Positions 825 to 40,626 of a DNA stretch of 64,000 nt are shown here, one piece after another. The stretch covers positions 32,001 through 96,000 of IMG/VR virus record IMGVR_UViG_2816332336_000005; one strand, given 5' to 3'. The translations under genes were made by a program, and so were the position numbers. The notes under the pieces were generated by a model. That model made no database searches. It had not been told where the DNA came from and saw nothing but the letters and a program-made list of their open reading frames with translations. Position 1 is the first letter of the stretch; each line of letters opens with the position of its first letter. The stretch comes from a virus (taxonomy: Duplodnaviria > Caudoviricetes).

Positions 825-851
825 TTACATCACCACCACCACCCGTAAATA

Positions 852-877: not shown

Positions 878-884
878 AGTTGCG

Positions 885-1850: not shown

Positions 1851-1934
1851 TCATTCCCCCTCACCATCTGCTCATGGTATAATAGTTTTACCGAACGTAT
1901 ATTCCATGGCTTCCGATGAGGGAGCTTTTTTGTT

Positions 1935-2918: not shown

Positions 2919-2946
2919 GATTTCCCTCCACATAAGCAATGTTTTG

Positions 2947-3213
2947 TTAAACTGTTTCGCCTCTGCGCCTTTGCATTTCTTCGAACACGACCCTGATATC
3001 CAACTTTGGTTGTTGGAACTCAAGCTGACTTATATCCTTCACAGCAAAGCGATGATGTGAGCCTTGTACAGTCGAGAGCTTCATATACGCGTCGTTTTCT
3101 TTACTGACCATCATCTGGAAGAATTTATCGTGATTTGTTTGGTACACATCCCACATGAATATCAAGAGGCTTTCCAGTGACTGGATATAATCTTCTTGGC
3201 TAATACCTTCCAT
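2947..3213 (-). CDS. Phage hypothetical protein
   Basis: 88 aa with SD GGGAGGGAG. Confidence 0.6.
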   Translation of the reverse strand: MEGISQEDYIQSLESLLIFMWDVYQTNHDKFFQMMVSKENDAYMKLSTVQGSHHRFAVKDISQLEFQQPKLDIRVVFEEMQRRRGETV

Positions 3214-3256
3214 CTGTTCTCCCTCCCATTTAACAAATCGTATGTTTAATTAAATT

Positions 3257-3445
3257 TCAGTCCTCTTCTTCAATCTGAGCGCCAATGCCATCGCACAGCA
3301 AAAAGTCACATAGAATCTCAAAATCCCCACTGGCTACAACCATTTCCCACTCTTCGCCTTCATATCCATATTCATCCGAAAGAGTAGTTACAACACGATC
3401 AAATCTTGTAAACTCAAACTCACCACAATTAATGATTAAGTTCAT
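3257..3445 (-). CDS. Small acidic hypothetical protein
   Basis: 62 aa, SD GGGAGGT. Confidence 0.65.
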   Translation of the reverse strand: MNLIINCGEFEFTRFDRVVTTLSDEYGYEGEEWEMVVASGDFEILCDFLLCDGIGAQIEEED

Positions 3446-3481
3446 ACTCTATACCTCCCATTTCCAAATCGTGTTTTGTAT

Positions 3482-3691
3482 TTAGTTCTCATCTGGCGAG
3501 CAATCTGGGCAGCATTCATGTTCTTCGCATGTGCATGCACTTAATAAGCCGTTTTCTTTCATGATCTGTTTCGTCCTATTGCAATGGTTGCATGGCTCTT
3601 TATGTGTTTCTTCGATATAAGGGAAATGCAGTGAGACAATCCCTGTATTTTCAACTGTATAGCCCAGCCCTCCGCAGTGCTGACAAACCAT
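3482..3691 (-). CDS. Small Cys-rich hypothetical protein
   Basis: CxxCxGxG, CxxC and CxC...CCxxC motifs; SD GGAGGGG. Confidence 0.65.
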   Translation of the reverse strand: MVCQHCGGLGYTVENTGIVSLHFPYIEETHKEPCNHCNRTKQIMKENGLLSACTCEEHECCPDCSPDEN

Positions 3692-3729
3692 ACTGTCCCC
3701 TCCATTTACAAATCGTGTGTTTTGTTAAA

Positions 3730-3924
3730 TCACAACATTATGAAAATAGGATCATCAGGAAAGTATTCAGAGTATTGTTCTAACAGTAACTTTTCTATCT
3801 CTGGCTTCTCCCATAGTCCAAACCCACGTTCATCTGATTCTGAACCATCAATAGTAAGCATTTCTATTCCACCTACTATGACCCTTATACAATCCTCTCC
3901 ATCAATCCGCCATTCTACTTTCAA
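3730..3924 (-). CDS. Phage hypothetical protein
   Basis: 64 aa, TTG start with SD. Confidence 0.6.
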   Translation of the reverse strand: MKVEWRIDGEDCIRVIVGGIEMLTIDGSESDERGFGLWEKPEIEKLLLEQYSEYFPDDPIFIML

Positions 3925-3969
3925 AGCACTCTCCCCCCATTTAACAGATCGTGTGTGCCGTGTTAATAA

Positions 3970-4230
3970 TTAGAAACCGCCATGTACTATGAGCTCTCCT
4001 GTGAGTTTGTTTATTTCTACATACACATAGTTTTCAGACAAAGTTTGCACTGTTTCATACGTAATTTCTTCATTGCAATGAGGGCATTTTTCCAAACGGA
4101 AATCTGTAACTTCCCATCCAACCCATTTCTTTTTCTCGATCTGTTCATCAAACTCATAAAAAACACCATTGCACACCTTGCATTGCATCTCTTTAGCTGA
4201 TAAAGAAAGAGTTCCTCCTATGTCTTTCAT
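3970..4230 (-). CDS. Zn-ribbon hypothetical protein
   Basis: CKVC...CPHC. Confidence 0.65.
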   Translation of the reverse strand: MKDIGGTLSLSAKEMQCKVCNGVFYEFDEQIEKKKWVGWEVTDFRLEKCPHCNEEITYETVQTLSENYVYVEINKLTGELIVHGGF

Positions 4231-4256
4231 TGTTTATTTCTCCCCCTTTTGTTCGG

Positions 4257-4646
4257 TCATTGTGATTCCTCCGTCAACTCTGGATTTTCGTAGATATTAC
4301 CGATTACTTCAAGGAATTCGTTGTAATCTCTCAGATCGTCAATATCGGGCCCGTGCCAATCGACAATAATACTTCCACGTGAAAATTCCACCGTTCCTGT
4401 TGCTGGTTCACTCCGACCAAGAACAATATCACCTTCATAAATCTCTTTACCGTTTTTGTCGTGGAGTCCAGTGTATTGCCGTAGAAGAAAGTACGAAGTT
4501 GCTGTATCGCAAATATTTCCCTTTGGCTTGGGTTGAGTATAATCAATTACTCCGCCATATCCATCTTCAATATCTAAATTAAACTCTCTCCATTTCAACA
4601 TACGTTTTTCTTCTGTTAGCCAAGCTTGAAACTTTTTCTCTCGCAT
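4257..4646 (-). CDS. YopX family protein
   Basis: QYTGLHDKNGKEIYEGDIV and EVIGNIYENPEL signatures. Confidence 0.9.
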   Translation of the reverse strand: MREKKFQAWLTEEKRMLKWREFNLDIEDGYGGVIDYTQPKPKGNICDTATSYFLLRQYTGLHDKNGKEIYEGDIVLGRSEPATGTVEFSRGSIIVDWHGPDIDDLRDYNEFLEVIGNIYENPELTEESQ

Positions 4647-4824
4647 CTAGTGCCTCCCATTTAGCTTGAACCTCTGCTAAGCCCTTCTGATAATCTGTAA
4701 GACTGCCCTCTAGTATTCTTCTGGAGTAGTCATACTGCACATTTTTGATATCTTCTTCTAGCTCATGGATGTAATTTTTAAAGTAAGTAATTTGTATAGC
4801 TAATACTGCTTTCTCGTTGTTCAT
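4579..4824 (-). CDS. Phage hypothetical protein
   Basis: 81 aa directly after Rha with SD AAAGGAG. Confidence 0.6.
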   Translation of the reverse strand: MNNEKAVLAIQITYFKNYIHELEEDIKNVQYDYSRRILEGSLTDYQKGLAEVQAKWEALDAREKVSSLANRRKTYVEMERV

Positions 4825-4826
4825 TT

Positions 4827-5558
4827 CTACGCTCCTTTGAATCCATCGAACATGTTCATCTGACCATTTGCCTCTTCAATTTCCCGAAGCAACTTGCCAC
4901 GCGGTGTCCATCTCTGTAAAAACTCTTTTGCTTTTTCGAAATCTTTAGTTGCAGTGTTCCGGTAAGAGTTAACTGCAAAATATTCCTGGTACTCATTCCA
5001 TGCTGCTTTAAACACTTTGAATACGATTTGTTTATATGCTGGACTTTCCTTACCGCCGATAATTTCCATCACTCTGCGCTTGCAAAGCGAGTTCAAAACT
5101 TGTTGTTGGCTATAATCCACTGTCTTGGTTTGCTCCAAATGAAACACACGATTTTCTATTTCCGATGTTCTTTCCTCGATCTTTTTATCTAGGACAAAAA
5201 TAGCTTGTAATTCTTTGCTCATACCAGCGAATGGATTGCTTATCTGCTTTTCCATTTCTTCAAACTTGGTCACATATGTTGCGGTAAACAGGGTTCCTTT
5301 TTCTCCAGTCATTTTGTTGGCTACCATATCGCAACCTTTACGACTAAGAAGGAAGCACGGTCTTAACTGGTTTTGTTTATCTACATACTCGCTAGGGAGA
5401 AAGAATTCGCCGAGGGAAAAATCTCCCTGAGTTAGATGTTCTGCATAATTTCTAATGGCTTTCATCAAATCGTTATGTGGCCTTTCGATCATCACAGCTA
5501 CCTCTCGGCTGTCTACTAGTAGTTGTCCGTTTTGATTGATTACAGTTAATTGATTCAT
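4827..5558 (-). CDS. Rha-family regulator/antirepressor with ORF6C-type C-terminus
   Basis: VDSREVAVMIERPHNDLMKAI and GCDMVANKMTGEKGTLFTATYV; C-terminal F.VNSYRN. Confidence 0.85.
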   Translation of the reverse strand: MNQLTVINQNGQLLVDSREVAVMIERPHNDLMKAIRNYAEHLTQGDFSLGEFFLPSEYVDKQNQLRPCFLLSRKGCDMVANKMTGEKGTLFTATYVTKFEEMEKQISNPFAGMSKELQAIFVLDKKIEERTSEIENRVFHLEQTKTVDYSQQQVLNSLCKRRVMEIIGGKESPAYKQIVFKVFKAAWNEYQEYFAVNSYRNTATKDFEKAKEFLQRWTPRGKLLREIEEANGQMNMFDGFKGA

Positions 5559-6634
5559 GCTCGTTTCTCTCCTCTCAGGGACTCATATAATTCTTTTAGC
5601 TCAGGATCATCCATAATCGTTTGCTTTTGCCTATCAAGCGTTGGATGTTCTAGTTGCTCCCGTTCTATTTGGCGCTGTACTGCTGCTGGAAGCTTGTCCT
5701 GCACAACATGCTTGCCATATCCTTTTTTGCCTTGTACAACTTGCAAATGGTTAGCCCTCTCTGCTTTGGAACGCTCATGATCTTGCTTATTTAGTTCAGC
5801 GTGTTCGGCTGTTTTGATGCCTCTTGATGGGAATTTATTAATAATGCCTCTGCAATAGATCCAATCCTTGCCATTCTCTGCTGCTTCCCTCATAGCCCAA
5901 GCAATAGCTGACATTTCTATTCCGTCATCAAGGTAACTATGTAAGAGTTCCGTCATGATGAAAGTTGGCTCGAAAACGAAATATTTTTTGTATTGGTCTA
6001 TGACACTGTTAAAAACATGCAAATCTCTACCGCCTACCTCCACCACTTCCCCTAAGGGGGATATAGGGGGTGTAGTATTATCTGTATCTGGTTCTGTATC
6101 TGGTTCTGTATCTGAATCTGTATCTGTATATATAGCGTGACTCGGCGTGACATCCTGTGACTTACCTTCTTTTACTTCGTGACCGTCACGCTTAGAATCA
6201 GTAGAACCAGCGTCATCATTAGCTTTTTTCTCTTCGGACTCTTTCTGCTTCTTCTTCTCTTCTGCTTCTTTAGCGCGTTGCTTCCTTTTTCTCTCTCGTG
6301 TGTTCTCTGGTTTATCAGATGATTTTTCGTATTGTCGATTCATGAAGTTGATCAATGTCACGCTACCATCAGCGTGACGCTCCATCATTTTGAGCGTGAC
6401 ACACATTTCAATAAAACCATTTGCTTGATCTAATTCTGACGCTGTTAGGCCAGCAACATGGGCTAAATCTTGATCGGTGTATTCAATGCCATCAGCGATG
6501 AATAATCTGCCTCGATCTGTTGAATTAGATGCCTCACACATAGCTGCAATCCATAACCATTTCTGCGTTGCGTTTAATCTTCGTAACTTCGGATCAACTA
6601 ATATTTCCGGATAAAGCCTCAACCATTTAACCAT
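5555..6634 (-). CDS. Phage replication initiator (replisome-organiser N-terminus, DnaD/DnaB-like C-terminus)
   Basis: MVKWLRLY...DPKLRRL N-terminus, RERKRKQR, DT repeats, WIYCRGIINKF; SD before 6634. Confidence 0.85.
   Translation of the reverse strand: MVKWLRLYPEILVDPKLRRLNATQKWLWIAAMCEASNSTDRGRLFIADGIEYTDQDLAHVAGLTASELDQANGFIEMCVTLKMMERHADGSVTLINFMNRQYEKSSDKPENTRERKRKQRAKEAEEKKKQKESEEKKANDDAGSTDSKRDGHEVKEGKSQDVTPSHAIYTDTDSDTEPDTEPDTDNTTPPISPLGEVVEVGGRDLHVFNSVIDQYKKYFVFEPTFIMTELLHSYLDDGIEMSAIAWAMREAAENGKDWIYCRGIINKFPSRGIKTAEHAELNKQDHERSKAERANHLQVVQGKKGYGKHVVQDKLPAAVQRQIEREQLEHPTLDRQKQTIMDDPELKELYESLRGEKRA
6079..6190. repeat. Tandem DT(E/D)(P/S) coding repeats and CGTGAC iteron-like repeats; putative origin of prophage A
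   Basis: tctgtatctggt repeats and several (G)CGTGAC copies in the middle of the initiator gene, the usual position of lambdoid-type origins. Confidence 0.5.
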
Positions 6635-6644
6635 GTCCTCACCC

Positions 6645-6995
6645 CTACGATGCTCCATTTGTGTAGTACGGGAGCAATACTTTCTCTCGATAATTCCGAA
6701 ACGCTTGACGCCCTTCTTTCGTGTGGTGAGCCTTCCAATGACACGTGCCTTTTTGACCAACAGGCCCGCAGGCTAAAGCAATGTTATGGACCTCTCCAGT
6801 GCCTCCCTCGCTTTTAAAAATGATGTGATGTGCTTCTAGCCATGTAGTCTTGCCACACAGCACACAACGCCCGTTATCTCGCTTCATTACTTCTTTGTAG
6901 ACAGCCGGGGAAATTCTTCCCCGGGCTCCGCGTTTTTTCGTTCTACGCTTGAAATTTGGCTTTTGTACAGCTCTTACTTCATCAAACATTCCCAT
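6645..6995 (-). CDS. HNH endonuclease
   Basis: RDNGRCVLCG...LEAHHIIFKSEGG...NIALAC...CHWKAH. Confidence 0.85.
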   Translation of the reverse strand: MGMFDEVRAVQKPNFKRRTKKRGARGRISPAVYKEVMKRDNGRCVLCGKTTWLEAHHIIFKSEGGTGEVHNIALACGPVGQKGTCHWKAHHTKEGRQAFRNYREKVLLPYYTNGAS

Positions 6996-7008
6996 GTTTA
7001 TCACCATC

Positions 7009-7413
7009 CTAGAAAGGTAAGTCATCATCTGAAATATTGATTGGTTTATCACTAGCGAAAGGATCATCGAATGAACTCTTATTGCTCTGTTGAGTTTGTC
7101 CATCTTTATAACTTAGGAACTGTACATTTTCTGCTATAACCTCAGTGACAAATCGTTTTTTACCATCCTGATCATCATAGCTACGAACCTGTATACGTCC
7201 CTCTAACGCGCATTTCTTCCCTTTTGATAAATAATTAGCGCATAGGTCGGCAAGCTGTCTCCAAACCACGATATTGATGAAATCTGCTTCGTTTTGTCCG
7301 TTCTGAACACGACGGTTAACTGCCAATGTGAATGTAGCAACCGCAACTCCATTTGGTGTGTATTTCATCTCAACATCTCGTGCAAGATTTCCGATGAGAA
7401 TAACTCTATTCAA
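7009..7413 (-). CDS. ssb: Single-stranded DNA-binding protein
   Basis: [15 protein letters not shown]...acidic tail DDDLPF. Confidence 0.95.
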
Positions 7414-7414
7414 A

Positions 7415-8017
7415 TCATGCAACCCCTTTTTCTTTCATCTTTTCTGTTAGGAACCTCTCGATTTGTTCATCCGTTTTTCCTTTTGATCGTTCTGTTTTAT
7501 ACCAATCATCAAACCCGTTTAGCGATCCAGCGAGCATCTGCCACTTAGCTTTTAATACAGCTTCTTTACTGTCGTTAACGTTCGGTTGAGCCTTTGATTG
7601 ATCTTTTGGCTTTTTTTCATCTAATTCAGCAGAACTTACTTTGTCTGGGTCTTCTCCTGTAGGAATAGCAAAGGTTCTTAGAAGCAAATATTTATAGGCA
7701 TATGTCATAGCCTTACCTACACCTTTATCTTGTGTATCTGCCCCTGTTCCACTTGAAACAGCTTCTATGCTGTCTCCTGTATCTACATCAACAATCCGGT
7801 ACCGAACATTCACTGTGGTAAGCTGATCCACTTTGGAATGCTCTTGATGGATAGGGATTATCACAAGCCCATGTTCCCGCATTGCTTTTCCTACAGCAGA
7901 CGTTACTTTCTCTTCTGAGATAGCCTTATATTTCGTGGATTTAAACTCCACTTTGTCATCTTTTTGGAGATAGGACACATCATTCATCACAGCGAGAATC
8001 TTTTTGTATACATTCAT
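7415..8017 (-). CDS. ERF-family single-strand annealing protein
   Basis: [29 protein letters not shown] motif. Confidence 0.88.
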
Positions 8018-8027
8018 GTTCTCACTC

Positions 8028-8513
8028 CTATTTGATCTGTAAGGAAGTACCTTTTACTAGCGTTACGCCCGGTATTTCCTCGCCTGATTTCAAACGTTCT
8101 GACATCGACTTTTTATCAAGAATTGGTGGTGGCGTTACCCAGAACATTTGAGGGATTTCAATTTCGTTTACCACCTGTACTGAACCCGTATTCTTTCTAA
8201 CTGAGATAGTGAAGATCGGTGTTTTGACTTTTTGTAATCCAGCTACCTCTAGTTGCTCTTTCAGATAGAGCTTTAAGCCCTCCTGCTTCTTTTCTAGGCG
8301 TCTCCTACGTTCAGCTAGGCGAGCCTCTTCCTGTTTAATCACCTCTACCTCAGCCGAGATATTACGCACCATTTTGGCGATATTATCAGCCTTATTTCCG
8401 ATAGCATCTTTTATGGATTGTAGAGTGTTAACTAGAGCCTCTGTTGGCGTCTCATCATCCAATATGATTTGTGCAACCTCAGCATAAGCACCAGCAAGAT
8501 CATACAACCTCAT
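8028..8513 (-). CDS. Siphovirus Gp157-family protein
   Basis: MRLYDL...KADNIAK...LKSGEEIPGVTL...SLQIK. Confidence 0.88.
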   Translation of the reverse strand: MRLYDLAGAYAEVAQIILDDETPTEALVNTLQSIKDAIGNKADNIAKMVRNISAEVEVIKQEEARLAERRRRLEKKQEGLKLYLKEQLEVAGLQKVKTPIFTISVRKNTGSVQVVNEIEIPQMFWVTPPPILDKKSMSERLKSGEEIPGVTLVKGTSLQIK

Positions 8514-8767
8514 AGTCCAACACCTCCGTAGAGCTTCATCAAATTGTCAAAGTGTTTTTTTACATCCACTAGGTATTCGAGGTTTTGTTCTGTTGAAAAT
8601 TCCTCCCAAGATACGGTTAGATATTTTAGATCCTCACTAATGCTTTCTACCTTCTCCCGTAACTCATCCCCCGGTTCATTGAAGGCTTTAATGCCATGAA
8701 GGAGATATCCTTGCCGATCAGGTTCAACACGCTCTACAAATTGCGGAAAATCAAGCAATGCTGGCAT
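8510..8767 (-). CDS. Phage hypothetical protein
   Basis: 85 aa, coupled within the early operon. Confidence 0.65.
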   Translation of the reverse strand: MPALLDFPQFVERVEPDRQGYLLHGIKAFNEPGDELREKVESISEDLKYLTVSWEEFSTEQNLEYLVDVKKHFDNLMKLYGGVGL

Positions 8768-8999
8768 ACTGTTTCCCCTCCCGTACTAAGGCTGCTGCAT
8801 GATCTTCACAGCGCCATAATTCTGTTTGTAATCCCCCTCTTGTTGATTTCATTTCAGCTAGCTCTCTACCGATCTTGCTGATCTTTTCTTCCAAAGCTAG
8901 TATTTCTTCATCCATTGATCTAATTTCTGTATTTAAGCGATCGATAGCACGATTTTGTTCGTTTAGCTCTATTTGAACGGTTCTGATATTTCTTTCCAT
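8751..8999 (-). CDS. Coiled-coil hypothetical protein
   Basis: MERNIRTVQIEL... heptad pattern; SD GGAGGT. Confidence 0.65.
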   Translation of the reverse strand: MERNIRTVQIELNEQNRAIDRLNTEIRSMDEEILALEEKISKIGRELAEMKSTRGGLQTELWRCEDHAAALVREGKQYASIA

Positions 9000-9048
9000 G
9001 CTTGTCCAACCTCCAATTATTTGGTATTGTAGAGGTACAAATTTTTGA

Positions 9049-9222
9049 TTAAGATGCCGTCTGTTGGTCGCAGGCGGTTTTTTCATGCTCTCTTATTTGT
9101 TCTGTAATCCACCGGGTAACTTGGCGATAGTTTTCATGAGCCTGATGATCTCCTGCTGTCTTAGTAATCATCATCAATCGCTGATATCTTTTTAGATCAG
9201 CAACTAAGTCCTCATAGTTCAC
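9049..9222 (-). CDS. Small hypothetical protein (57 aa, not in ORF track)
   Basis: GTG start after AAGGGGG SD: MNYEDLVADLKRYQRLMMITK... Confidence 0.5.
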   Translation of the reverse strand: MNYEDLVADLKRYQRLMMITKTAGDHQAHENYRQVTRWITEQIREHEKTACDQQTAS

Positions 9223-9427
9223 GCAGATAATCCCCCTTATTTAAGATTCGTTGAGATTGTTCAAACTGGCGTGTTACTTTGATATCCGACACCTTCCTCG
9301 CTATGATCTCCTTCCTTGTGGCATCGACCTCATCCCCGTTTTCACGACTAATCTCTGAAAGAATAAGCATCCCTTGTGCGATGTGATACAGCTCCTCTTC
9401 GTCCAAACCATCCAGCATTTCTTTCAC
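9212..9427 (-). CDS. Phage hypothetical protein
   Basis: 71 aa, SD AAGGAG. Confidence 0.65.
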   Translation of the reverse strand: MKEMLDGLDEEELYHIAQGMLILSEISRENGDEVDATRKEIIARKVSDIKVTRQFEQSQRILNKGDYLREL

Positions 9428-9439
9428 CTTCTCACTCCT

Positions 9440-9688
9440 TTACACCATTACTGATAGAACGTTTTGCATGATGGACATTCCATCCATTCCACAGAAGAAC
9501 GCTACAGCCACCTCCTTCGCTCCTGTGGCTTCTATCCACGCTAGTCCCGTTTGGAAATCCAACGTTTTCTTATCTGTCTCCAGCTTGCTTATGCAACTTC
9601 TTGAACGATTGAGCTTTTCGGCTAATTGTTCTTGGCTTAACCCTGCTCTTTCTCTGCAAGCGTGCAGTATCGCTCCGAACTTCTTCAC
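9440..9688 (-). CDS. XRE-family HTH regulator
   Basis: RERAGLSQEQLAEKLNRSRSCISKLE. Confidence 0.85.
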   Translation of the reverse strand: MKKFGAILHACRERAGLSQEQLAEKLNRSRSCISKLETDKKTLDFQTGLAWIEATGAKEVAVAFFCGMDGMSIMQNVLSVMV

Positions 9689-9820
9689 TTTTCTCTCTCC
9701 TTCTTCAAACTTGTTCCATTTTGTTCCAAATAAGAACAGCCAAATTTGATAAGTTGTTTTACAATTAAAGTGTGTTCATCTTTCATGCTTTCCCTCGGGC
9801 TGCTCACCTGGGGGAATTTT

Positions 9821-10009
9821 TTAACCAACTTGATAACTTTCTTCTTCGGATTTACGCATCCATTCGTCGATAACTTCCTTTCGAAATAAGATGCGCCCTC
9901 TAACTCTTGTATTTGGTATCTGCTTTTTTCGAACCATTGTATAGATTGTGTCGGTGCTAACACCTAGATAAGTTGCTATTTCAGAAACGGACATTGTTGT
10001 TTTTGTCAT
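9821..10009 (-). CDS. Excisionase-like HTH DNA-binding protein
   Basis: MSVSEIATYLGVSTDTIYTMVRKKQIP...RILFRKEVIDEW. Confidence 0.85.
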   Translation of the reverse strand: MTKTTMSVSEIATYLGVSTDTIYTMVRKKQIPNTRVRGRILFRKEVIDEWMRKSEEESYQVG

Positions 10010-10094
10010 ATTAATTGCTCCTTTTTGAATTTTTTTACCTCTTTCTGGTAAAATGGAGTTGTCGAGACTACTTCTACTAGAAAGGGGGATAAAA

Positions 10095-10364
10095 ATGATT
10101 ACATATGCTGAAGTGAAATGTTACAACTGCGAAAATAAGTTTCCTGTATATTGGCATGATTGGGAAAAGAATTTACCTATTAAATGTCCTTTTTGTGTAA
10201 CTCAGTTTACTGACCGTCAAACTGAACATCTAAAACTTGCTCTTGGCACTGCCTCTGAATTAAATGGCAAGCTTAGAAGTGAAGCTATGGACGGTGGTGA
10301 CCTTTTCCAAGTTGATTTCAAACATGTATTTGTTCCAGTCGAAAAGTATCGTTTAGATGATTAA
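10095..10364 (+). CDS. Zn-ribbon hypothetical protein (opposite strand)
   Basis: CYNC...CPFC; SD AAAGGGGG. Confidence 0.65.
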   Translation: MITYAEVKCYNCENKFPVYWHDWEKNLPIKCPFCVTQFTDRQTEHLKLALGTASELNGKLRSEAMDGGDLFQVDFKHVFVPVEKYRLDD

Positions 10365-10539
10365 ACAGTTTTTCAGTTTGACTAGGATTGAGATTGTTTC
10401 GTTTTATAATGTTCGAAATTTCGGTTGTTATAATAGCGTAACAATCTCTTCCTAGTTCAATTTTCAATTCATTGGCTTCAAACTTATAACGCTCGATAAA
10501 ACTTTCTAGCTTTTCGGTCGGACTAGCCATTCTTATCAC
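10318..10539 (-). CDS. Phage hypothetical protein
   Basis: ORF directly after the Cro-like gene. Confidence 0.5.
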   Translation of the reverse strand: MIRMASPTEKLESFIERYKFEANELKIELGRDCYAIITTEISNIIKRNNLNPSQTEKLFNHLNDTFRLEQIHV

Positions 10540-10542
10540 CCC

Positions 10543-10779
10543 TTAGGCTGTTTTTTGTTCACTTTTGTGACCACAATCAATAAAAAAAATAACCTCAAAC
10601 TGTACTTCTAATGTTTCGCATATTTCTTTCGCTACTTGCGGACTTGGGTTTCGATTACCACTCTCCAGTAGGGAGATGTAAGACACCGCTTTATTAATTT
10701 CTCGTGCAAGACCTCGTTGAGAAAACCCTTTTTTTATTCGAGCCTGAGCAAAATCATGTACCTTAACCTTTATCTTCAT
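10543..10779 (-). CDS. Cro-like XRE HTH regulator
   Basis: ARIKKGFSQRGLAREINKAVSYISLLESGNRNPS; divergent from the repressor. Confidence 0.85.
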   Translation of the reverse strand: MKIKVKVHDFAQARIKKGFSQRGLAREINKAVSYISLLESGNRNPSPQVAKEICETLEVQFEVIFFIDCGHKSEQKTA

Positions 10780-10917
10780 TGTCACCATCCTTTCAACTGG
10801 TTCCTTATGTGACCATAATAACATTGAATGTAACTTTTTGCAACCGTTTTTGGTTCTTTTTGAAAACAATTGTTTTCATTCGTGAACATGGTAAAATAAA
10901 ACTAATTGTGCTCACAA
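10565..10917. promoter_or_regulatory. Genetic-switch operators, consensus TTGTG-N2-CACAA
   Basis: TTGTGACCACAA 10565-10576, ATGTGACCATAA 10807-10818, TTGTGCTCACAA 10906-10917. Confidence 0.6.
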
Positions 10918-10943
10918 ATGTTTACTAGAAAGGAGGAGACTCC

Positions 10944-11573
10944 TTGGATTTCGGTAAGTACCTAAAAAATATTCGGGAAAGTCGTTCCCTTTCTGTTAGG
11001 GAGTTAGCCAAAAGATCCGATGTGTCCCATTCCCATATTTCTCAAATCGAGACAGGTCAAAGAGGTATTCCAAAACCTGATACTATAAAAAAACTGGCTG
11101 ATGGGTTAAATATTCCCTTTGACGAACTGATGCAATACGCCGGATATATAGAACAATCTACTTATACTAATCAGGAAGAGTTTGATTCTTTAAATAGTAG
11201 CAGTGAAAGCCTCTCTAAAGCTGGTCAGAGAATCAAGCTGTTACGTGAAACAAGAAAATGGTCCCAGTTATTATTGTCTGAAAAACTTGGTATAAACAAT
11301 AGCGTTCTATCAAGAATTGAAGCTGGAAAGCGTGATGTAGAAGATTATTTGCTTAATAAAGCAGCAGATATTTTTGATGTAACATCTGATTATTTGCTCG
11401 GCAGGACAAATGATCCAAGCCCCAATAATGCGAAGTATAATGACAATGATTCGAATATAGGTCTAGCCTTTTCCGATGGTGGAGAAACAGAACTTACTGA
11501 GGAAGAAGAGTTATACCTTAAAGAGAGCTTAATGCTATTTAGAAGAATGAAAGAAAAACGTTCAAACAAATAA
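10944..11573 (+). CDS. Immunity repressor (ImmR/CI-like) with two XRE HTH domains
   Basis: Two HTH_3-like domains; divergent from Cro and upstream of ImmA. Confidence 0.88.
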   Translation: MDFGKYLKNIRESRSLSVRELAKRSDVSHSHISQIETGQRGIPKPDTIKKLADGLNIPFDELMQYAGYIEQSTYTNQEEFDSLNSSSESLSKAGQRIKLLRETRKWSQLLLSEKLGINNSVLSRIEAGKRDVEDYLLNKAADIFDVTSDYLLGRTNDPSPNNAKYNDNDSNIGLAFSDGGETELTEEEELYLKESLMLFRRMKEKRSNK

Positions 11574-11618
11574 TAGAACCTTTTTAGCCCTAAGGGCTAT
11601 TATTTTCAACTATAGATA

Positions 11619-11632
11619 CGAACATACGTTTG
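11619..11632. promoter_or_regulatory. SOS (LexA/DinR) box upstream of ImmA
   Basis: CGAACATACGTTTG versus Bacillus consensus CGAAC-N4-GTTCG. Confidence 0.7.
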
Positions 11633-11649
11633 AGGAACGAGGGGACATC

Positions 11650-12282
11650 ATGGATTTTTCACTTTATAAGACAATGCCATTAGAAGATTGGATTAACTCA
11701 ATTTATCTCCAAAACTCTATTTGTACTCCTGATGATCTTGAAATTGAACAGATTTCATCTATCTTTGGAGGAGAGGTTATCTATCTACCAACAAATTCTC
11801 ATGCCAGATGGATTGATGATGGAACTACTGAATTTCTTATAGTGGTGAATAGTCGTTTAGATGAGATAGCTATACGTGGTCAATTCTTTCATGAACTTTG
11901 TCACCCCCTTCGACACTCGGGAAATCAAAAAGTACTTCCCCGAGCATTCTGTGATTTACAAGAGGCACAAGCTTTTCATTTTCAATTGTACTCTTCAATA
12001 CCGTTTTATATGGTCAGAGAACTCGATCTCCCTCTGTATGAAAAAGACATATCTCAATATATAAGTCACACTTTCAAAGTGCCCATTGAACTTGCCACAC
12101 ATCGCTTTAAACAAATCAAAGCACGCATTCAACAGGAAGAATATCGACTCACTATTTCTACCCATCTTCAGGAATGGTATCGAAAATCTATTCCAGAAAA
12201 CTGGTCAGACGAGACGAAAACACTTTTCCGTCTGGCACTTAAAAGGAAGTTTGAAAAAGAAAGAGAAGTTGTCCTTAGCTAA
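11650..12282 (+). CDS. ImmA/IrrE-family metallopeptidase (anti-repressor)
   Basis: FFHELCH HExxH motif followed by QEAQA; lies between repressor and integrase. Confidence 0.9.
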   Translation: MDFSLYKTMPLEDWINSIYLQNSICTPDDLEIEQISSIFGGEVIYLPTNSHARWIDDGTTEFLIVVNSRLDEIAIRGQFFHELCHPLRHSGNQKVLPRAFCDLQEAQAFHFQLYSSIPFYMVRELDLPLYEKDISQYISHTFKVPIELATHRFKQIKARIQQEEYRLTISTHLQEWYRKSIPENWSDETKTLFRLALKRKFEKEREVVLS

Positions 12283-12378
12283 AAGTGGCTGTTTATCACA
12301 CTCTTTTTATAGGTTCTTTATGATTCCATTACTCTTTTAAAACGTAAGGAATTACTACATATAAAATCTGAAAATGAG

Positions 12379-13569
12379 GTGGAGAGATTGGCTAGCATTG
12401 AAAGACGGGGTAAAGACTCTTTTCGTTTGGTTGTGGAAGTTGGCTATGATGCAAACGGCAAACGAATTAAACGCACAAAGACTATTAAAGGTGTAGGTAA
12501 ACGTGAGGCAGAAAAAGAATTGGCCAAATTTATCATGGAAGTTGAGTCAGGAGAATACATTGCTCCAGAAAAAATGACATTAGCTACTTTTGTAGATGAG
12601 TGGAAAGAAAAATATGCTAAAAGGGAGTTAGCTCCTAAAACATTAGAGAATTATCTTATCCAAATCAATAATAGAATTCTTCCTGAATTTGGGCATATGA
12701 GATTAGATCAAATAAAGCCACTCCATATAATCACCTTCATTAATAAGCTTCAAGGTGAAGGTATTAGGAACGATAACAGAGAAGGAAAGCTTTCTTCTAG
12801 TATGATCGAATACATCCATAAAGTTCTTAAAAATATTTTCAATCGTGCTGTAGAATGGAAAGTCATAAAAAAACACCCGATGGAATCCTTAAAAAAGCCT
12901 AAGGTTGAACAAGAAGAAATGTCAGTTTATGAAGAAGAAGAGATTCGACTGCTCTTTATAGCACTAGAGAAAGAATCTTTAATGTGGAGAATCATGGTAA
13001 CCCTTGCTCTTACTTGCGGTCTGAGAAGAGGTGAATTACTTGCCTTAGAATGGGATAATGTGAACTTCGAGGAGAGTTATATCTATATTAAACATTCACT
13101 ATCCTATTCCAAAGAGTCTGGATACCTAATCAAAGAGCCTAAGACAAAAAACTCCAAAAGAAAAGTATCTATTCCTTTAAGTCTAATACCGGACCTAAAA
13201 GAATTAAAAAAGCAAGCAATGAAAGATCGGCTTAAAGCAGAGGAACTATGGGAAGGTGGAGAAAGATTTTTTGTATTTACTTCTTGGCATGGTAAGCCTC
13301 TATATCCATCAAGCGTAAAAACATGGTGGTCACGATTTACAAAAAGACACGCATTAAGATATATTCGTTTTCACGACTTACGCCACACATCAGCTACATT
13401 ACTTATCAACCAAGGTGTACACACTAAGATAGTTAGTCAAAGATTGGGACATGCGAAAACATCTACAACTAATGATATCTATGCTCATGTATTACTTTCT
13501 GCTGATAAAGAAACAGCCAAACATTTTGATTCTCTCCTACAAAATATATCAGTCCCCAAAAATGCATAA
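12379..13569 (+). CDS. int: Tyrosine integrase
   Basis: GLRRGELLAL, FHDLRHT, RLGH and IYAH catalytic R-HxxR-H-Y residues. Confidence 0.95.
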   Translation: MERLASIERRGKDSFRLVVEVGYDANGKRIKRTKTIKGVGKREAEKELAKFIMEVESGEYIAPEKMTLATFVDEWKEKYAKRELAPKTLENYLIQINNRILPEFGHMRLDQIKPLHIITFINKLQGEGIRNDNREGKLSSSMIEYIHKVLKNIFNRAVEWKVIKKHPMESLKKPKVEQEEMSVYEEEEIRLLFIALEKESLMWRIMVTLALTCGLRRGELLALEWDNVNFEESYIYIKHSLSYSKESGYLIKEPKTKNSKRKVSIPLSLIPDLKELKKQAMKDRLKAEELWEGGERFFVFTSWHGKPLYPSSVKTWWSRFTKRHALRYIRFHDLRHTSATLLINQGVHTKIVSQRLGHAKTSTTNDIYAHVLLSADKETAKHFDSLLQNISVPKNA

Positions 13570-34843: not shown

Positions 34844-35218
34844 CTATTCGTCCATTTCAGCTACCATGCGTTTCAGCTCGTCAATGTCCGGCACCTCTCC
34901 GTTAGCCTTCGTCTCGACTTCGACCTTATCCGTAAGCAATCCGACCTGCTGGAACAGCAGCTTAGCCGCCGCCGCGTTCCCGTCCTTGACTGCCGTGTCA
35001 AACATCGCTTTATTCACCGCAGGTATCATGTCGCGTACATTACGCCTCATCCGCGCTATAAGTTCCTTTTCGAACGCGCTATCGTTCTTCCAATTGTAAA
35101 TTGTACGTTCGCTCACGTTACATTCCTTCGCGATCTCAGCGACTGTCTTGCCGCCTTGTTGTGGCTGTGCTAGATAGCCTATCGCGATGTACTGTTCGGT
35201 TGTTAATCGTTTAGCCAT
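34844..35218 (-). CDS. Terminase small subunit, phBC6A51-type HTH
   Basis: LTTEQYIAI..., EIAKECNVSERTIYNWK, GNAAAAKLLFQ. Confidence 0.8.
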   Translation of the reverse strand: MAKRLTTEQYIAIGYLAQPQQGGKTVAEIAKECNVSERTIYNWKNDSAFEKELIARMRRNVRDMIPAVNKAMFDTAVKDGNAAAAKLLFQQVGLLTDKVEVETKANGEVPDIDELKRMVAEMDE

Positions 35219-37224: not shown

Positions 37225-37248
37225 AAAAAGCCGCCGGAATTGGCGACT
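37225..37248 (-). terminator. Terminator downstream of the micropeptide array
   Basis: Minus strand AGTCGCC-AATTCC-GGCGGCT-TTTT. Confidence 0.75.
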
Positions 37249-37302
37249 CTCGATTAGTTACTTACTCATATGGTCCGCGTACATCGTGGTAAATGCGGCT
37301 AC

Positions 37303-37359
37303 TTACCAGCCGATTCCACCGTGATCAAAACGACGCTTATTCCAATCTGGTTCTGCCAT
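37303..37359 (-). CDS. Micropeptide 6: MAEPDWNKRRFDHGGIGW
   Basis: SD AAAGGAG, ATG 37359, TAA 37303; paralogous to the other array members. Confidence 0.75.
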   Translation of the reverse strand: MAEPDWNKRRFDHGGIGW

Positions 37360-37376
37360 ATCGTACACTCCTTTGC

Positions 37377-37454
37377 TTAGTGACCGGGGTCATCGACGTA
37401 GCCCGGGTCGTCCGTATTGCAATTACGCTGTACCGCCCATTCTGATTCGGTCAT
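37377..37454 (-). CDS. Micropeptide 5: MTESEWAVQRNCNTDDPGYVDDPGH
   Basis: SD GGAGGAGG, ATG 37454. Confidence 0.8.
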   Translation of the reverse strand: MTESEWAVQRNCNTDDPGYVDDPGH

Positions 37455-37473
37455 ATTGCGAGCCTCCTCCGTT

Positions 37474-37545
37474 TTAGTAGCCGGGATCGTCGATCCAAAC
37501 AACGATACCTTGCGGATTATCAACCCAATTCTTATCGTAAACCAT
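37474..37545 (-). CDS. Micropeptide 4: MVYDKNWVDNPQGIVVWIDDPGY
   Basis: SD GAGGGAGG, ATG 37545. Confidence 0.8.
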   Translation of the reverse strand: MVYDKNWVDNPQGIVVWIDDPGY

Positions 37546-37562
37546 ATCGGTTCCTCCCTCAT

Positions 37563-37619
37563 TTAATGACCCGCATCGTCTAGCCAACCGGGGTCAAAAA
37601 TCCAATCTGGTTCCGTCAT
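37563..37619 (-). CDS. Micropeptide 3: MTEPDWIFDPGWLDDAGH
   Basis: SD GAGGAGGG, ATG 37619. Confidence 0.8.
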   Translation of the reverse strand: MTEPDWIFDPGWLDDAGH

Positions 37620-37637
37620 AGAAAATCCCTCCTCGGT

Positions 37638-37676
37638 TTAATGACCGGGATCATAGTGCCATTCTGGATTAGTCAT
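37638..37676 (-). CDS. Micropeptide 2: MTNPEWHYDPGH
   Basis: SD AAGGAGGT, ATG 37676. Confidence 0.8.
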   Translation of the reverse strand: MTNPEWHYDPGH

Positions 37677-37697
37677 GTCGTGTAACCTCCTTAAATA

Positions 37698-37796
37698 CTA
37701 ATGCCCCGGGTTGTCGGTCCACTTCGGTCCTGCGTCCCAATTAGGGTCTGTGCAGCATTTCCACTCCGGAAAGCTCTCGAAAACTATTTTCATCAT
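37698..37796 (-). CDS. Micropeptide 1: MMKIVFESFPEWKCCTDPNWDAGPKWTDNPGH
   Basis: SD AAGGAGGTG, ATG 37796. Confidence 0.8.
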   Translation of the reverse strand: MMKIVFESFPEWKCCTDPNWDAGPKWTDNPGH

Positions 37797-37817
37797 ATCC
37801 ACCTCCTTGCCTACATC

Positions 37818-37845
37818 TTTCGACAAGAAGATTTCTAATTCCTTC
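37818..37845 (-). promoter_or_regulatory. Sigma-H-like promoter for the micropeptide array
   Basis: GAAGGAATT-N12-GTCGAAA versus sigma-H consensus AGGA-N17/18-GAAT (one mismatch in the -10). Confidence 0.55.
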
Positions 37846-37854
37846 CAAACGTGC

Positions 37855-37880
37855 AAAAAGCCGCCGGTTTTCCGACGACT
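37855..37880 (-). terminator. Terminator insulating the array from upstream genes
   Basis: Minus strand AGTCGTCGG-AAAA-CCGGCGGCT-TTTT; shares AAAAAGCCGCCGG with the 37225 terminator. Confidence 0.75.
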
Positions 37881-38591: not shown

Positions 38592-39044
38592 TTACGCAAT
38601 AAAATAGCTCTTGACTTCGCTCGCCTTTATGTCCCTTGCGTACTGTTCTTGTCTCGCCTTATTGCGTATCTTAGCGTTGTTATCTACGAATTGCATTTCG
38701 TAAGGGCTGCGTCTTCTGCGCGAAGGTTTCCGGTAAGAGATTCCGTCCGTCCCTGTATCCTCTACTATTTTAAGCGAGGTCTCACCGCCCATACCGGAAC
38801 CTCGTCGCTTGTGTTTTCCGAGTGTTCGGCGGGCGTATTGTGTCGCGGATAGAATCGGATATTCATGGTGGGTCATTTTATGTTCGTCATCATCCGTGAG
38901 CTCTTCGTAGAGTATCGCGTCTGCTAGGCGTTCAAGCTCGCCGGAGTCTGGCCTATTATCCGTACGTAGGATTACTTCATCTATCCACTCGCAAATAGCT
39001 GCTATTCGGTCGGTTCGTTCCATTTTTACCCATTCCATCATCAT
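38592..39044 (-). CDS. Phage hypothetical protein
   Basis: LERLADAILYEELTD...EYPILSATQ; coupled to the sigma-like gene. Confidence 0.7.
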   Translation of the reverse strand: MMMEWVKMERTDRIAAICEWIDEVILRTDNRPDSGELERLADAILYEELTDDDEHKMTHHEYPILSATQYARRTLGKHKRRGSGMGGETSLKIVEDTGTDGISYRKPSRRRRSPYEMQFVDNNAKIRNKARQEQYARDIKASEVKSYFIA

Positions 39045-39409
39045 GCTGCCTCCTCACCGTAATTCCATATCTCATAGACCTTCGCTATTCGTTCCAATCC
39101 ATTTCTTACGCGTAATCCGGCTTTTTGAGGGCTGATGCCCATAGCCTTTCCCGTCTCAACAGTGTCTAACTCCCGTTCATAAACGTAATACAACGCCTCA
39201 CGCTCCCGATCTGTCAGCCCCGCCCGTTCGATCGCCTCCGCCAGATCAATCAACACGTCACACGCCGCGTAGTCGCCCCGTTCGAACCGGCTGGCCCGTA
39301 AATGGTGGATGTCGCGTAGGATTGCGTGTACGCCGTCGCGGTCATTTAACGCATACCTTACGGAAAGATTGCGGTGTCCCTTTTCGATATCTACGGCACA
39401 TGCGCCCAT
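39041..39409 (-). CDS. Sigma-70 region-4 HTH protein
   Basis: GLTDREREALYYVY...ETGKAMGISPQK. Confidence 0.75.
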   Translation of the reverse strand: MGACAVDIEKGHRNLSVRYALNDRDGVHAILRDIHHLRASRFERGDYAACDVLIDLAEAIERAGLTDREREALYYVYERELDTVETGKAMGISPQKAGLRVRNGLERIAKVYEIWNYGEEAA

Positions 39410-40626
39410 TAAGCCGCCTCCTTTATCGTATTCCCCTCGTAATACCCCGCTACAATCCGATCCGCCCATCCGAAGTCCCACGTACTATTACCGTCAATCT
39501 CCTCGCCCGCGCCGAGTGTCAGTTCGTTCCACCGGTAAGGTCCGTCGGCATACGTTCGGGCCCCGTCTCTGTATCCATCACAGTAACCGTTACCGTGCGA
39601 GAAGAAAAACGCCTCGTTACCCTTGCCGCTCCCGTGCCAACTCGGAATATGCGGGTACAAGTTCTCGCGCATCAGACCATCATCCGTAAAGTCCACGAGC
39701 AGATCGTCCAGTTGTGCCGCCTCAGTTCGTTGCCCTTTCGCATCCAACCCAATGTCCGTCACCACCGCGAAATAGGACGGAGGCTGTCCGGCTAGGAACC
39801 GCGCATCGTGTTGCGTAATAGCGACGTCTCCCCCACGCTTAAAGCTCGATCTCCATCGTTTAGTCGCGGGTTCAATTAACGGAGTATCAGGTGGCCCCTT
39901 CCGTAATATCAATATCTGTGTTTCTATTGTCGTCCCTACGTGTTGGAACGTCTCGCCCGGCAGGTGGATCGTGGCAATATGCCAGCAAGTTTCGTGCATG
40001 TATTTACGGATTTTTGCGGAATACTGTGCGTACGAAATACCCATTGGTAGGACGAATGCAATATAACCGCCGGGCTTTACGGCTTTGATAGCGAGTTCGA
40101 GAAATACGTTCTCGGACTTACCGCGGTATTTGCCCTTCGACTTGGATAGCGTCGTAAAATCGTCACGTTCCGTCTCCAACGTCAGCCCATACGGTGGGTT
40201 ACCAATGACTATATCGTAGTAGTCGCGTCTCTCATGTAGCAACGCGTCCGCATTGATCACGTTCACATGCGGGTAAATGAGCTTCGTCACCTTCGCACTC
40301 GTTTCGTCGAGCTCGAGCGCTGTAATTTCGCAATCCGGCGGAATGTGTTCGAGAAATACACCGGAGCCGGCTGACGGTTCGAGGACACGCATACTGCTCG
40401 TTAGTCCACCAGACAATCCCGCAATCGCCTCGACCACGAACCGCGCTACGTGCGTCGGCGTAAAGAAAGCACCACCGGAGAATGCGTTCGGTAAGAGACC
40501 GCCTGCCGACGTGTAGTTTTCGCGTAGGAACTGGACGTCTTCCTCCGTTATCTCTTCGGGTGGCTTCGCTACTATCGCCATTGAGCGTACGTTACCTTCC
40601 CAACGTTTGCGGTCGGCTTTTCCCAA
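39409..40626 (-). CDS. N6-adenine DNA methyltransferase (orphan)
   Basis: FFTP, VLEPSAGSGVF (motif I), IGNPPY (motif IV). Confidence 0.9.
   Translation of the reverse strand: MGKADRKRWEGNVRSMAIVAKPPEEITEEDVQFLRENYTSAGGLLPNAFSGGAFFTPTHVARFVVEAIAGLSGGLTSSMRVLEPSAGSGVFLEHIPPDCEITALELDETSAKVTKLIYPHVNVINADALLHERRDYYDIVIGNPPYGLTLETERDDFTTLSKSKGKYRGKSENVFLELAIKAVKPGGYIAFVLPMGISYAQYSAKIRKYMHETCWHIATIHLPGETFQHVGTTIETQILILRKGPPDTPLIEPATKRWRSSFKRGGDVAITQHDARFLAGQPPSYFAVVTDIGLDAKGQRTEAAQLDDLLVDFTDDGLMRENLYPHIPSWHGSGKGNEAFFFSHGNGYCDGYRDGARTYADGPYRWNELTLGAGEEIDGNSTWDFGWADRIVAGYYEGNTIKEAA

Follow-up and report, generated by a model that had tools for sequence, protein, structure and literature searches.

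A Brevibacillus prophage cassette of leaderless micropeptides that probably counterfeits many cell-to-cell signals at once

What would a prophage do with six genes of 12–32 amino acids (aa) set one behind the other? The question is raised by a stretch of DNA of 64,000 nucleotides (nt) from the IMG/VR record IMGVR_UViG_2816332336_000005 (positions 32,001 to 96,000; the whole of this stretch is referred to here as the window), in which a Brevibacillus prophage carries six consecutive micro-open reading frames (micro-ORFs) on the minus strand at 37303–37796 (stop codons included), each with a GGAGG-type Shine-Dalgarno (SD) sequence in the 18 nt 5' of its start and, by eye, some 5–9 nt ahead of the ATG. 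The original prediction, made from the letters of the window, had described the array as a set of ready-made cytoplasmic ligands for foreign receptors of the RRNPP type, and most of the description on which it was built stood: the six SD-led ORFs read exactly as given there, four of them start with M(T/A)(E/N)(P/S)(D/E)W, five end in (D/N)(P/A)G(H/Y) and the sixth in GGIGW, the block lies between two related terminators (the downstream one found by a terminator scan, the upstream one by eye with the shared CCGGCGGCTTTTT core), and, as stated there, no signal peptide is evident from charge and hydrophobicity and the annotation shows no adjoining enzyme or transporter. The block had been taken to extend to 37845, which falls in the leader, ORF1 ending at 37796. 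We found that the ends of many of these peptides, and of those encoded by homologous arrays, are identical to the tails of secreted propeptides encoded beside receptors in the Brevibacillus laterosporus genus group, and with them the phage probably forges many intercellular signals in parallel. In the reading best supported by the sequences, the cassette provides copies of numerous host signals together with the signal of one rival phage; that it is a leaderless mimic library for sporulation-linked host quorum receptors plus a rival phage receptor, acting inside the producing cell, is the fuller reading we prefer, with a probability of about 0.6.

The comparison rests on a catalogue of signals taken from propeptide genes that lie directly 3' of receptors with helix-turn-helix (HTH) and tetratricopeptide repeat (TPR) domains. 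A small ORF with the look of a signal peptide followed 86 of 120 distinct long ORFs, and the 80 signal-peptide-bearing propeptides that passed a stricter filter gave 50 distinct tails of six residues. Against this catalogue we set 71 micro-ORFs from 15 loci which encode 60 unique peptides; the counts are lower bounds, as the SD filter missed one weak-SD ORF ending in GGIGW in each of two loci (L069 and L077; L and G numbers are our labels for loci and genomes), and neither the tail of the L004 array (L012) nor the L153 array is among the 71. In classical propeptides of this kind the C-terminal 5–8 residues form the mature signal, and it is at this end that the putative mimics agree with them: the C-terminal 5-mer was identical to a catalogue tail in 53 of the 71 micro-ORFs (45/60 unique peptides) and the C-terminal 6-mer in 16 of them (14/60 unique peptides). 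When the peptides were parsed into units, 74 of 166 ended in a real signal 5-mer. When the 60 unique peptides were shuffled 2000 times with their composition preserved, the mean numbers of matches were 0.02 for 5-mers and 0.0025 for 6-mers (maxima 2 and 1, respectively); shuffles with the last three residues fixed gave means of 4.2 and 0.31, and a six-frame control of the rest of the window (127,996 residues) returned one match. The absence of RRNPP propeptides with matching tails had been named at the outset as a result that would speak against the proposal, and many such propeptides were found beside HTH-TPR receptors. The catalogue tails include LDDAGH, HYDPGH, HDDPGH, TDNPGH, TGDPGH, VYDPGH and VVDPGY as well as DYDPGY, TDNPQG, ITEPDW, STAPDW and YSFPEW, and relaxed criteria add VDNPQG and NEDPGH.

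Exact signal hexapeptides are present in five of the six window ORFs (TDNPGH, HYDPGH, LDDAGH, an internal VDNPQG, and HGGIGW). ORF1 ends in TDNPGH, the tail of a secreted propeptide in L129, and also holds SFPEW, a tail in L149; the HYDPGH of ORF2 is a propeptide tail in L118, from which it differs in 2 of 18 nt; and ORF3 combines LDDAGH (a tail in L134) with TEPDW (a tail in L148). The internal VDNPQG of ORF4 is found as the tail of propeptides in L122 and L123 and its DDPGY as a 5-mer tail in L125, while ORF5 has the 5-mers DDPGY and DDPGH (tails in L125 and L139) and no exact 6-mer match in the catalogue. ORF6 ends in HGGIGW, which is the twice-repeated tail of the secreted propeptide adjoining the receptor of Brevibacillus phage Emery, with 4 of 18 nt different. 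Across 21 comparisons of identical hexapeptides we counted 2–5 synonymous differences in 18 nt, with unrelated flanks. It is therefore the peptide rather than the DNA which is conserved, since the hexapeptides are identical, the codons differ and the flanks are unrelated.

Among the arrays themselves, in 45 (non-independent) pairs of equal-length orthologous micro-ORFs, differences at codon positions 1, 2 and 3 numbered 110, 65 and 181, with 105 synonymous and 157 non-synonymous codon changes, a profile that marks coding sequence in which a few positions change fast. Between ORF1 and its Emery counterpart all of the differences across FESFPEWKCCTDPNW are synonymous. Both this profile and the hexapeptides with different codons bear out the early observation that the motifs are kept while synonymous sites vary.

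The receptors whose signals are copied are numerous in the B. laterosporus genus group. A profile of the phage-type receptors gave 45 matches in five of the six genomes of the group, with up to 12 matches per genome (G006–G011, L019–L152), and a second, related HTH-TPR family, which adjoins some of the phage-type receptors, gave 7–25 matches per genome in all six. These whole-genome profile searches were far more sensitive than a pattern-based locus search with a receptor alignment, which found four viral loci and one genome locus. Some of the receptor–propeptide pairs are in tandem, and all of the host propeptides have an MKK-type start followed by a hydrophobic stretch. Of the full-length matches, 19 of 52 in one receptor family and 8 of 38 in the other have a Spo0E-like gene no more than 900 nt downstream; of 65 Spo0E-like matches (5–24 per genome), 27 are found at such a distance behind a listed receptor. 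By the coordinate tables, the Spo0E-linked systems include those with the tails LDDAGH, VDNPQG, HDDPGY, VYDPGH and TGDPGH.

The target systems have an Alo-type layout, with an HTH plus TPR-like receptor, a downstream ORF for a secreted peptide and, frequently, a Spo0E-like gene. Alo systems are described from the Paenibacillaceae, where the AloP13 hexapeptide SHGRGG lowers the expression of a downstream spo0E-like gene and where Brevibacillus is among the carriers of AloR-like proteins (Voichek et al. 2020, PMC7425212, in the passages available to us). Going by those passages, further points of likeness are a propeptide of 28–73 aa with a signal peptide directly downstream of the receptor, a signal formed by the C-terminal hexapeptide, many paralogues per genome and a Spo0E-like gene often found downstream, and some of the target tails, DHGIGG and EHGVGG, resemble SHGRGG. 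It should be noted that this likening is by layout and tails, with the target systems set beside AloR13 by description only.

The receptors have an N-terminal HTH domain (HTH_3/HTH_26) and weak TPR matches, and the model of the TDNPGH-system receptor (predicted local distance difference test score, pLDDT, of 85.6) combines an HTH with a superhelix of helical repeats. In a Foldseek search with this model PlcR–PapR ranked third and AimR 48th, interspersed with generic TPR proteins, and VIA-align returned Z-scores of 18.2 for RapI, 17.8 for NprR, 14.6–14.8 for AimR and 19.7 for LGN. Profile and sequence searches of the PDB gave no AimR sequence match to these receptors and no AimR-named family is among the listed Pfam and NCBIfam matches, so that the modelled likeness to AimR is a structural one at the level of the TPRs only (Z about 14.7). 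The original prediction had expected several foreign receptors, those of competing phages and host RRNPP regulators among them. This is supported, with host Alo-type systems rather than arbitrium systems of other phages as most of the putative targets, and only the GGIGW unit points to a rival phage.

The phage also has a communication module of its own, and the propeptide ending in VGGGW that had been pointed out in the window was found directly after a 441-aa HTH protein (Table 1). This sole receptor of the phage lies 22 kb from the array, and its signal, IVGGGW, is absent from the array. Window-type propeptides with this tail occur also in L009, L011, L015 and L027, and the tails beside homologous receptors of related phages are IVGGGW in three relatives, NVGEHG (twice) in one and HGGIGW (twice) in Emery. 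GGIGW followed by a stop codon has a single occurrence in Emery, at the end of the propeptide, and ORF6 is its only occurrence in the full provirus record to which the window belongs. All eight phages or prophages that signal with IVGGGW or NVGEHG have an array with a GGIGW unit and without their own tail, and there is no GGIGW micro-ORF in Emery, whose own signal is HGGIGW, or in the fragmentary relative L006. This pattern is suggestive of arrays that avoid the signal of the phage that carries them, and it is no more than suggestive because the phages are related. As far as the hosts are concerned, the units of an array are mixed, some corresponding to signals of the genome in which it resides and others to signals known only from elsewhere in the clade. 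In the phage collection, the window-type receptor had no tblastn match and the Emery-type receptor matched Emery and SecTim467. The SecTim467 protein (KT151957.1; L017 1110–2933) is a distant receptor homologue directly after a gene annotated as Spo0E, and the small ORF annotated 3' of it does not have the look of a signal peptide.

Homologous arrays of variable copy number, with 4–9 ORFs, were found in 15 or more loci, and the variation in copy number that had been proposed as a check on related prophages was seen at the same locus in relatives. Emery (KC595516.1) has an array of seven micro-ORFs which sits between the lysis genes and an XRE/integrase module, a genomic place different from that in the window; in the Emery record gp37 and gp38 are called on the opposite strand over the array and the micro-ORFs are unannotated. 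Scans of IMG/VR with the conserved leader and ORF patterns gave six further proviruses with arrays of 5–6 ORFs, and a BLAST-type search of 61 family genomes detected arrays in four of the six that belong to the B. laterosporus genus group, with up to three per genome and 4–9 ORFs, and a single weak hit of 42 nt in the other 55. An array is also present on one large B. laterosporus plasmid (NZ_CP011075.1), where it too is unannotated. A search of representative genomes with the leader pattern had given no matches, because their leaders differ, and it was the later BLAST-type search that found the arrays there. Apart from Emery, no relative of the array or of ORF1 was found in 50,697 phage records, and the pattern MTEP(D/E)WxxDPG had no matches in IMG/VR. 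SD-led 12-mers ending in DPG(H/Y) were found in seven stretches, which represent one new array, three known ones and three occurrences of an unrelated single ORF; the last are near-identical IMG/VR metagenome contigs (L154, L155 and L156) with an SD-led ORF of 12 aa that ends in LDPGH, stands outside any array and probably matched the pattern by chance.

The array peptides are of 11–55 aa with a net charge of −10 to 0 (mean −3.1), and the number of hydrophobic residues per 12-residue window reaches at most 8, in one frameshift-fused ORF, with no signal peptide. Most are leaderless products of two to five units: the 12-mers (16/60 unique ORFs) can be parsed into a head unit and one signal unit, and the 18-mers (10/60) into three units. 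Matches to signals are found among the internal and N-terminal units as well (VDNPQG, TEPDW, TAPDW, SFPEW, LDPGW and HDDPGY), so that the head units MTEPDW and MTAPDW and the SFPEW of ORF1 also correspond to tails of secreted signals. An aromatic residue or His stands directly ahead of the last six residues in 55 of 60 micro-ORFs (usually W) and in 40 of 79 secreted propeptides (usually Y), with a background of 7.8%. As an aromatic residue precedes the hexapeptide in both, a cut after aromatics would free hexapeptides from both kinds of precursor.

In the reading we prefer, the translation products of the micro-ORFs would be short, acidic and free of export signals, each a concatemer of signal units of about six residues, and these peptides, whole or cut behind the aromatic residue at the end of a unit, would occupy the pockets of cytoplasmic receptors in the producing cell. 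Secretion, maturation and re-import would be bypassed, and the phage could force a dozen receptors simultaneously to read 'high density', or keep them from doing so, through an agonist or an antagonist effect. We favour action inside the producing cell because the peptides are leaderless, the receptors are cytoplasmic, and the cassette is insulated and movable like a prophage moron. Since many of the copied systems are just upstream of Spo0E-like phosphatase genes, a shift in the timing of Spo0A-controlled sporulation would be expected in the lysogen or infected cell, and the GGIGW unit may feed false information to the decision module of an Emery-type phage that superinfects the cell. A broader formulation, to which we would give even odds, is that the array is an evolvable 'phrasebook' in which leaderless concatemers copy a dozen or more host pherotypes and a rival's decision signal, faking density for many receptors; its output would be that Spo0E-type brakes on sporulation are released or held and competing phages misdirected.

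A number of observations weigh against this interpretation. An exact 6-mer partner is missing for 55 of the 71 micro-ORFs, in a catalogue that covers six genomes and a few phages, and the tally for the avoidance of own signals is made up of non-independent phages with one Emery-type genome and one fragment. The modelled receptor fold is consistent with RRNPP receptors and non-diagnostic, as the generic TPR protein LGN scores higher than RapI. The products, at 11–55 aa, exceed the presumed mature signals of 6 aa, and internal units would need a cut after W, Y, F or H, for which a cytoplasmic protease is still only hypothetical; acidic peptides as short as these may be rapidly broken down once in the cytoplasm; and the aromatic residue shared with secreted propeptides would fit extracellular maturation equally well. 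The leader has boxes with a tentative likeness to a sigma-H promoter, and 2 of the 80 host propeptide genes share the promoter-like box of the array; with so few carrying it, the promoter of the array was not borrowed from the host propeptide genes. There are also decayed chromosomal arrays (L071 and L085 in G009, L078 in G006, and L083 in G011), with frameshifts, fused ORFs and spoiled tails such as ...GDRG and ...DNSGQ, and the identical defects in L071 and L078, which are from two genomes, suggest an old remnant.

The point about maturation leads to the most serious rival, in which the peptides are broadcast at lysis: freed by lysis or leakage, they would be cut after aromatic residues by the extracellular proteases that process host propeptides, and neighbours would import the hexapeptides as a false high-density signal, or, for the rival phages in them, a false HGGIGW signal. 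Each unit ends in and follows an aromatic residue or His, as in secreted propeptides, and the matches of internal and N-terminal units to real signals make sense only if those units are cut out. It is because the unit boundaries resemble maturation sites and internal units must be excised that we take broadcasting seriously, and the location of the window array, between a late sigma-like regulator and the terminase genes, would suit it too. Nevertheless, the cassette has its own terminators and a conserved promoter-like leader, and in Emery it is found elsewhere, between the lysis genes and the integrase, and an insulated cassette in a different location has the layout of a moron expressed from the prophage rather than that of a late gene. 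Passive exit is also unlikely because the peptides are acidic and non-hydrophobic; the SIP peptide, in contrast, has 8 residues and is rich in L and F. Precedents for the two halves of such a route are documented, with leaderless communication peptides that leave the cell described in the part of PMC10518010 available to us and extracellular maturation of multi-pheromone propeptides in the corresponding part of PMC11343458 for phage Rap-Phr systems. On balance we consider the broadcasting of these peptides the less likely, and action within the producing cell the better, account.

Competition at a shared step is a much less probable explanation. Here the peptides would be decoy substrates for a maturation protease, for the oligopeptide permease approached from inside or for a PepF-type peptidase, and all of the host signals would be shifted together, which would agree with the likeness of the array to many signals at once; the intracellular degradation of pheromone by PepF is a control point in another RRNPP system (PMC9173638, in the sections accessible to us). 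Whole hexapeptides are exact, however, including the pherotype-specific positions (HYDPGH, HDDPGH, TDNPGH, LDDAGH and HGGIGW), which goes beyond the need of a generic competitor, and we found nothing specific in support of decoys.

We think it more improbable again that the ORFs are remnants of propeptide tails, or upstream ORFs that serve only to control, through their translation, the cargo gene behind them. Arrays in many relatives lead into a conserved stretch of non-coding DNA, which contains a long hairpin and a second promoter-like box, and beyond it lies a variable cargo gene; its product is a membrane peptide of 41 aa in Emery, L006 and L073, and L003, L005 and L012 encode larger proteins there. 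A regulatory role would make sense of this arrangement and a remnant would make sense of the decay in some chromosomal arrays, but the window and L007, and likewise L070 (from its ORF list only), keep the array without the hairpin stretch and cargo gene, each ORF has a strong SD, the codon-position profile is that of coding sequence, and hexapeptides are kept despite diverged synonymous sites. The hairpin stretch is without covariation support, because one of its 29 predicted pairs shows compensatory change.

Lowest in our ranking are precursors of ribosomally synthesised and post-translationally modified peptides (RiPPs), modified by a host or distant phage enzyme, which several small paralogues with a conserved N-terminal and a variable C-terminal part, and a Cys pair in some ORF1 versions, might bring to mind, since the annotated neighbourhoods of the window and Emery have no modifying enzyme, protease or exporter adjoining the arrays (elsewhere the flanking DNA and small ORFs were read), the Cys residues are not conserved (the position varies as KCC, KHR, KYR and KHS), and the units equal the unmodified linear tails of Sec-dependent propeptides. 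The RiPP idea was dropped, as were those of mimics of single-stranded DNA-binding protein (SSB) tails, ComX-like peptides, arrest peptides and RNA sponges, because the units are identical to secreted signal tails.

How far, then, does a mimic library resemble systems already known? In arbitrium (AimR–AimP–AimX), hexapeptides that bind to HTH-TPR receptors in the cytoplasm reportedly steer the decisions of phages, and non-cognate ones are said to be able to influence other phages. The window phage and Emery are similar in that each has a pair of receptor and secreted propeptide, whereas the array differs in that an arbitrium peptide is secreted and encoded beside its receptor and the array peptides are neither. 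The enterococcal peptides iCF10 and iAD1 are plasmid-encoded look-alikes of host pheromones which compete at PrgX and TraA. These provide a case of a mobile element that copies a host peptide signal and competes at an RRNPP-type receptor, but each plasmid has a single inhibitor, which carries a signal sequence for its secretion and acts on the receptor of the plasmid itself, and no phage is involved. Paratox (Prx) is reportedly a prophage protein that acts against ComR, and is comparable as a prophage factor that manipulates a host RRNPP receptor; it is a folded receptor-binding protein, though, rather than a copy of a signal, and is not directed at multiple systems.

A classical RRNPP or Alo propeptide has a Sec signal and an adjoining cognate receptor, and the array micro-ORFs have neither: no receptor is next to the arrays among the annotated neighbours in the window and Emery or among the ORFs listed around the other loci. 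Set against Alo systems, the array also has several signals per peptide, is carried by phages and forms an operon of 4–9 ORFs. The leaderless communication peptides of streptococci and other Firmicutes (SIP–RopB), as presented in the passages of PMC10518010 at hand, are similarly ultrasmall leaderless ORFs for RRNPP ligands that annotation overlooks. By the same account each is a single peptide of 8 residues, encoded beside a RopB-type receptor, secreted and re-imported, whereas the array peptides are acidic 11–55-mers which are arrayed, phage-borne and copy host signals of the Sec route. Phage Rap-Phr systems share with the array several pheromone units per precursor, which are freed by proteolysis, as well as carriage by phages and a link to sporulation, and differ in having signal peptides, repeats of the phage's own cognate signal and an adjoining Rap receptor (PMC11343458, as far as its available passages go). 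Candidate receptor–propeptide pairs in Brevibacillus phages are reported in the RRNPP_detector papers, with no such array in the passages seen, and the available part of a 2026 paper on arbitrium cross-talk (PMC13220667) makes no mention of mimic, leaderless or orphan peptides. We found no description of a leaderless array of signal copies in the open full-text literature (without supplements or subscription journals).

If the proposal is true, the cassette would be the first instance of a virus that mimics peptide quorum signals, and the first multi-signal gene array without a receptor. It would be a new way to cheat in microbial communication, beyond quorum systems that a phage owns (arbitrium, Rap-Phr) and proteins that block a receptor (paratox), and it would explain the diversification of host signals seen in the 7–25 receptor matches per genome, with pherotypes on one side, mimic libraries on the other and possibly an arms race between them. 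Each micro-ORF unit names its presumed receptor and in this way provides testable predictions, and leaderless signal cassettes might become genetic tools for switching peptide quorum receptors from within cells. The cassette also exposes a blind spot of annotation, as genes of 12–32 aa were unannotated in every record examined.

Table 1. Positions of the micro-ORFs, the elements around them and other features discussed in the text. Positions are those of the window unless a locus (L) or accession is given.
Feature	Position	Strand	Remarks
Micro-ORF1, 32 aa	37698..37796	-	Units ..SFPEW / ..DPNW / DAGPKW / TDNPGH
Micro-ORF2, 12 aa	37638..37676	-	Units MTNPEW / HYDPGH
Micro-ORF3, 18 aa	37563..37619	-	Units MTEPDW / IFDPGW / LDDAGH
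Micro-ORF4, 23 aa	37474..37545	-	Units MVYDKNW / VDNPQG / IVVW IDDPGY
Micro-ORF5, 25 aa	37377..37454	-	Units MTESEW / AVQRNCNTDDPGY / VDDPGH
Micro-ORF6, 18 aa	37303..37359	-	Units MAEPDW / NKRRFD / HGGIGW
Conserved leader of ~50 nt plus SD of ORF1	37797..37850	-	Boxes GGAAGGAATT, 12 nt, GTCGAAAG at ~37847-37817
Upstream terminator-like hairpin plus T-run	~37855..37879	-	Core CCGGCGGCTTTTT; by eye, not listed by terminator scan
Downstream intrinsic terminator closing the cassette	37226..37251	-	Terminator scan; shares core with upstream hairpin
Single-helix membrane peptide, 28 aa	37879-37965	-	Just upstream of array
Single-helix membrane peptide, 33 aa	38098-38199	-	Just upstream of array
Late sigma-like factor	39041-39481		Array lies between this gene and the small terminase subunit
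Small terminase subunit	34844-35218		
Phage's own receptor, 441 aa	59715..61040	-	HTH plus helical repeats; HTH_3 match; homologues in related phages
Phage's own secreted propeptide, 47 aa	59570..59713	-	Ends IVGGGW; directly after receptor
First prophage	1-13569		
Repressor, first prophage	10944-11573		
ImmA-like peptidase, first prophage	11650-12282		
Integrase, first prophage	12379-13569		
Second prophage	14000-64000		Carries array; extends beyond window end
Emery array, seven micro-ORFs	L001 3780-4290	-	Minus strand of locus
Plasmid array, B. laterosporus	NZ_CP011075.1, 605713-606227		
Conserved hairpin stretch 3' of arrays	L003 10313-10530		
Conserved hairpin stretch 3' of arrays	L005 660-859	-	
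Conserved hairpin stretch 3' of arrays	L012 2106-2325		
Conserved hairpin stretch 3' of arrays	L001 3593-3737	-	
Conserved hairpin stretch 3' of arrays	L006 8564-8708	-	
Conserved hairpin stretch 3' of arrays	L073 2237-2379		
Conserved hairpin stretch 3' of arrays	L077 1918-2210		

The array is a moron-type cassette of the prophage, insulated by terminators, with a predicted promoter, and with a presence and position that vary among relatives. Its leader is near-invariant in all 12 intact arrays aligned, with the order terminator, GGAAGGAWTT, 12 nt, GTCGAAAG and SD. The upstream hairpin ends the gene for the 28-aa membrane peptide that precedes the array, and elements with the same core are ahead of the arrays in L003, L004, L005, L006, L007, L068, L070, L073 and L077, while the terminator core of the window is found also 3' of the arrays, or of their cargo gene, in relatives. 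Searches with Rfam gave no family in the window at gathering thresholds, and in four related loci the sole match up to E=1 was a chance hit to mir-30.

In the window the array is immediately flanked by genes for two small membrane peptides, an XRE protein and uncharacterised small proteins, and by the annotation no enzyme, transporter or receptor gene adjoins it. The 28-aa membrane peptide and its terminator are also ahead of the array in L003, L004, L007, L068, L070, L073 and L153, and the upstream membrane peptides may help small peptides to exit the cell. The window as a whole consists of two tandem prophages (Table 1). In the second, the lysis and structural genes at about 14–35 kb are followed by the array and then, past 62 kb, by replication genes, and the first ends with genes for a repressor, an ImmA-like peptidase and an integrase.

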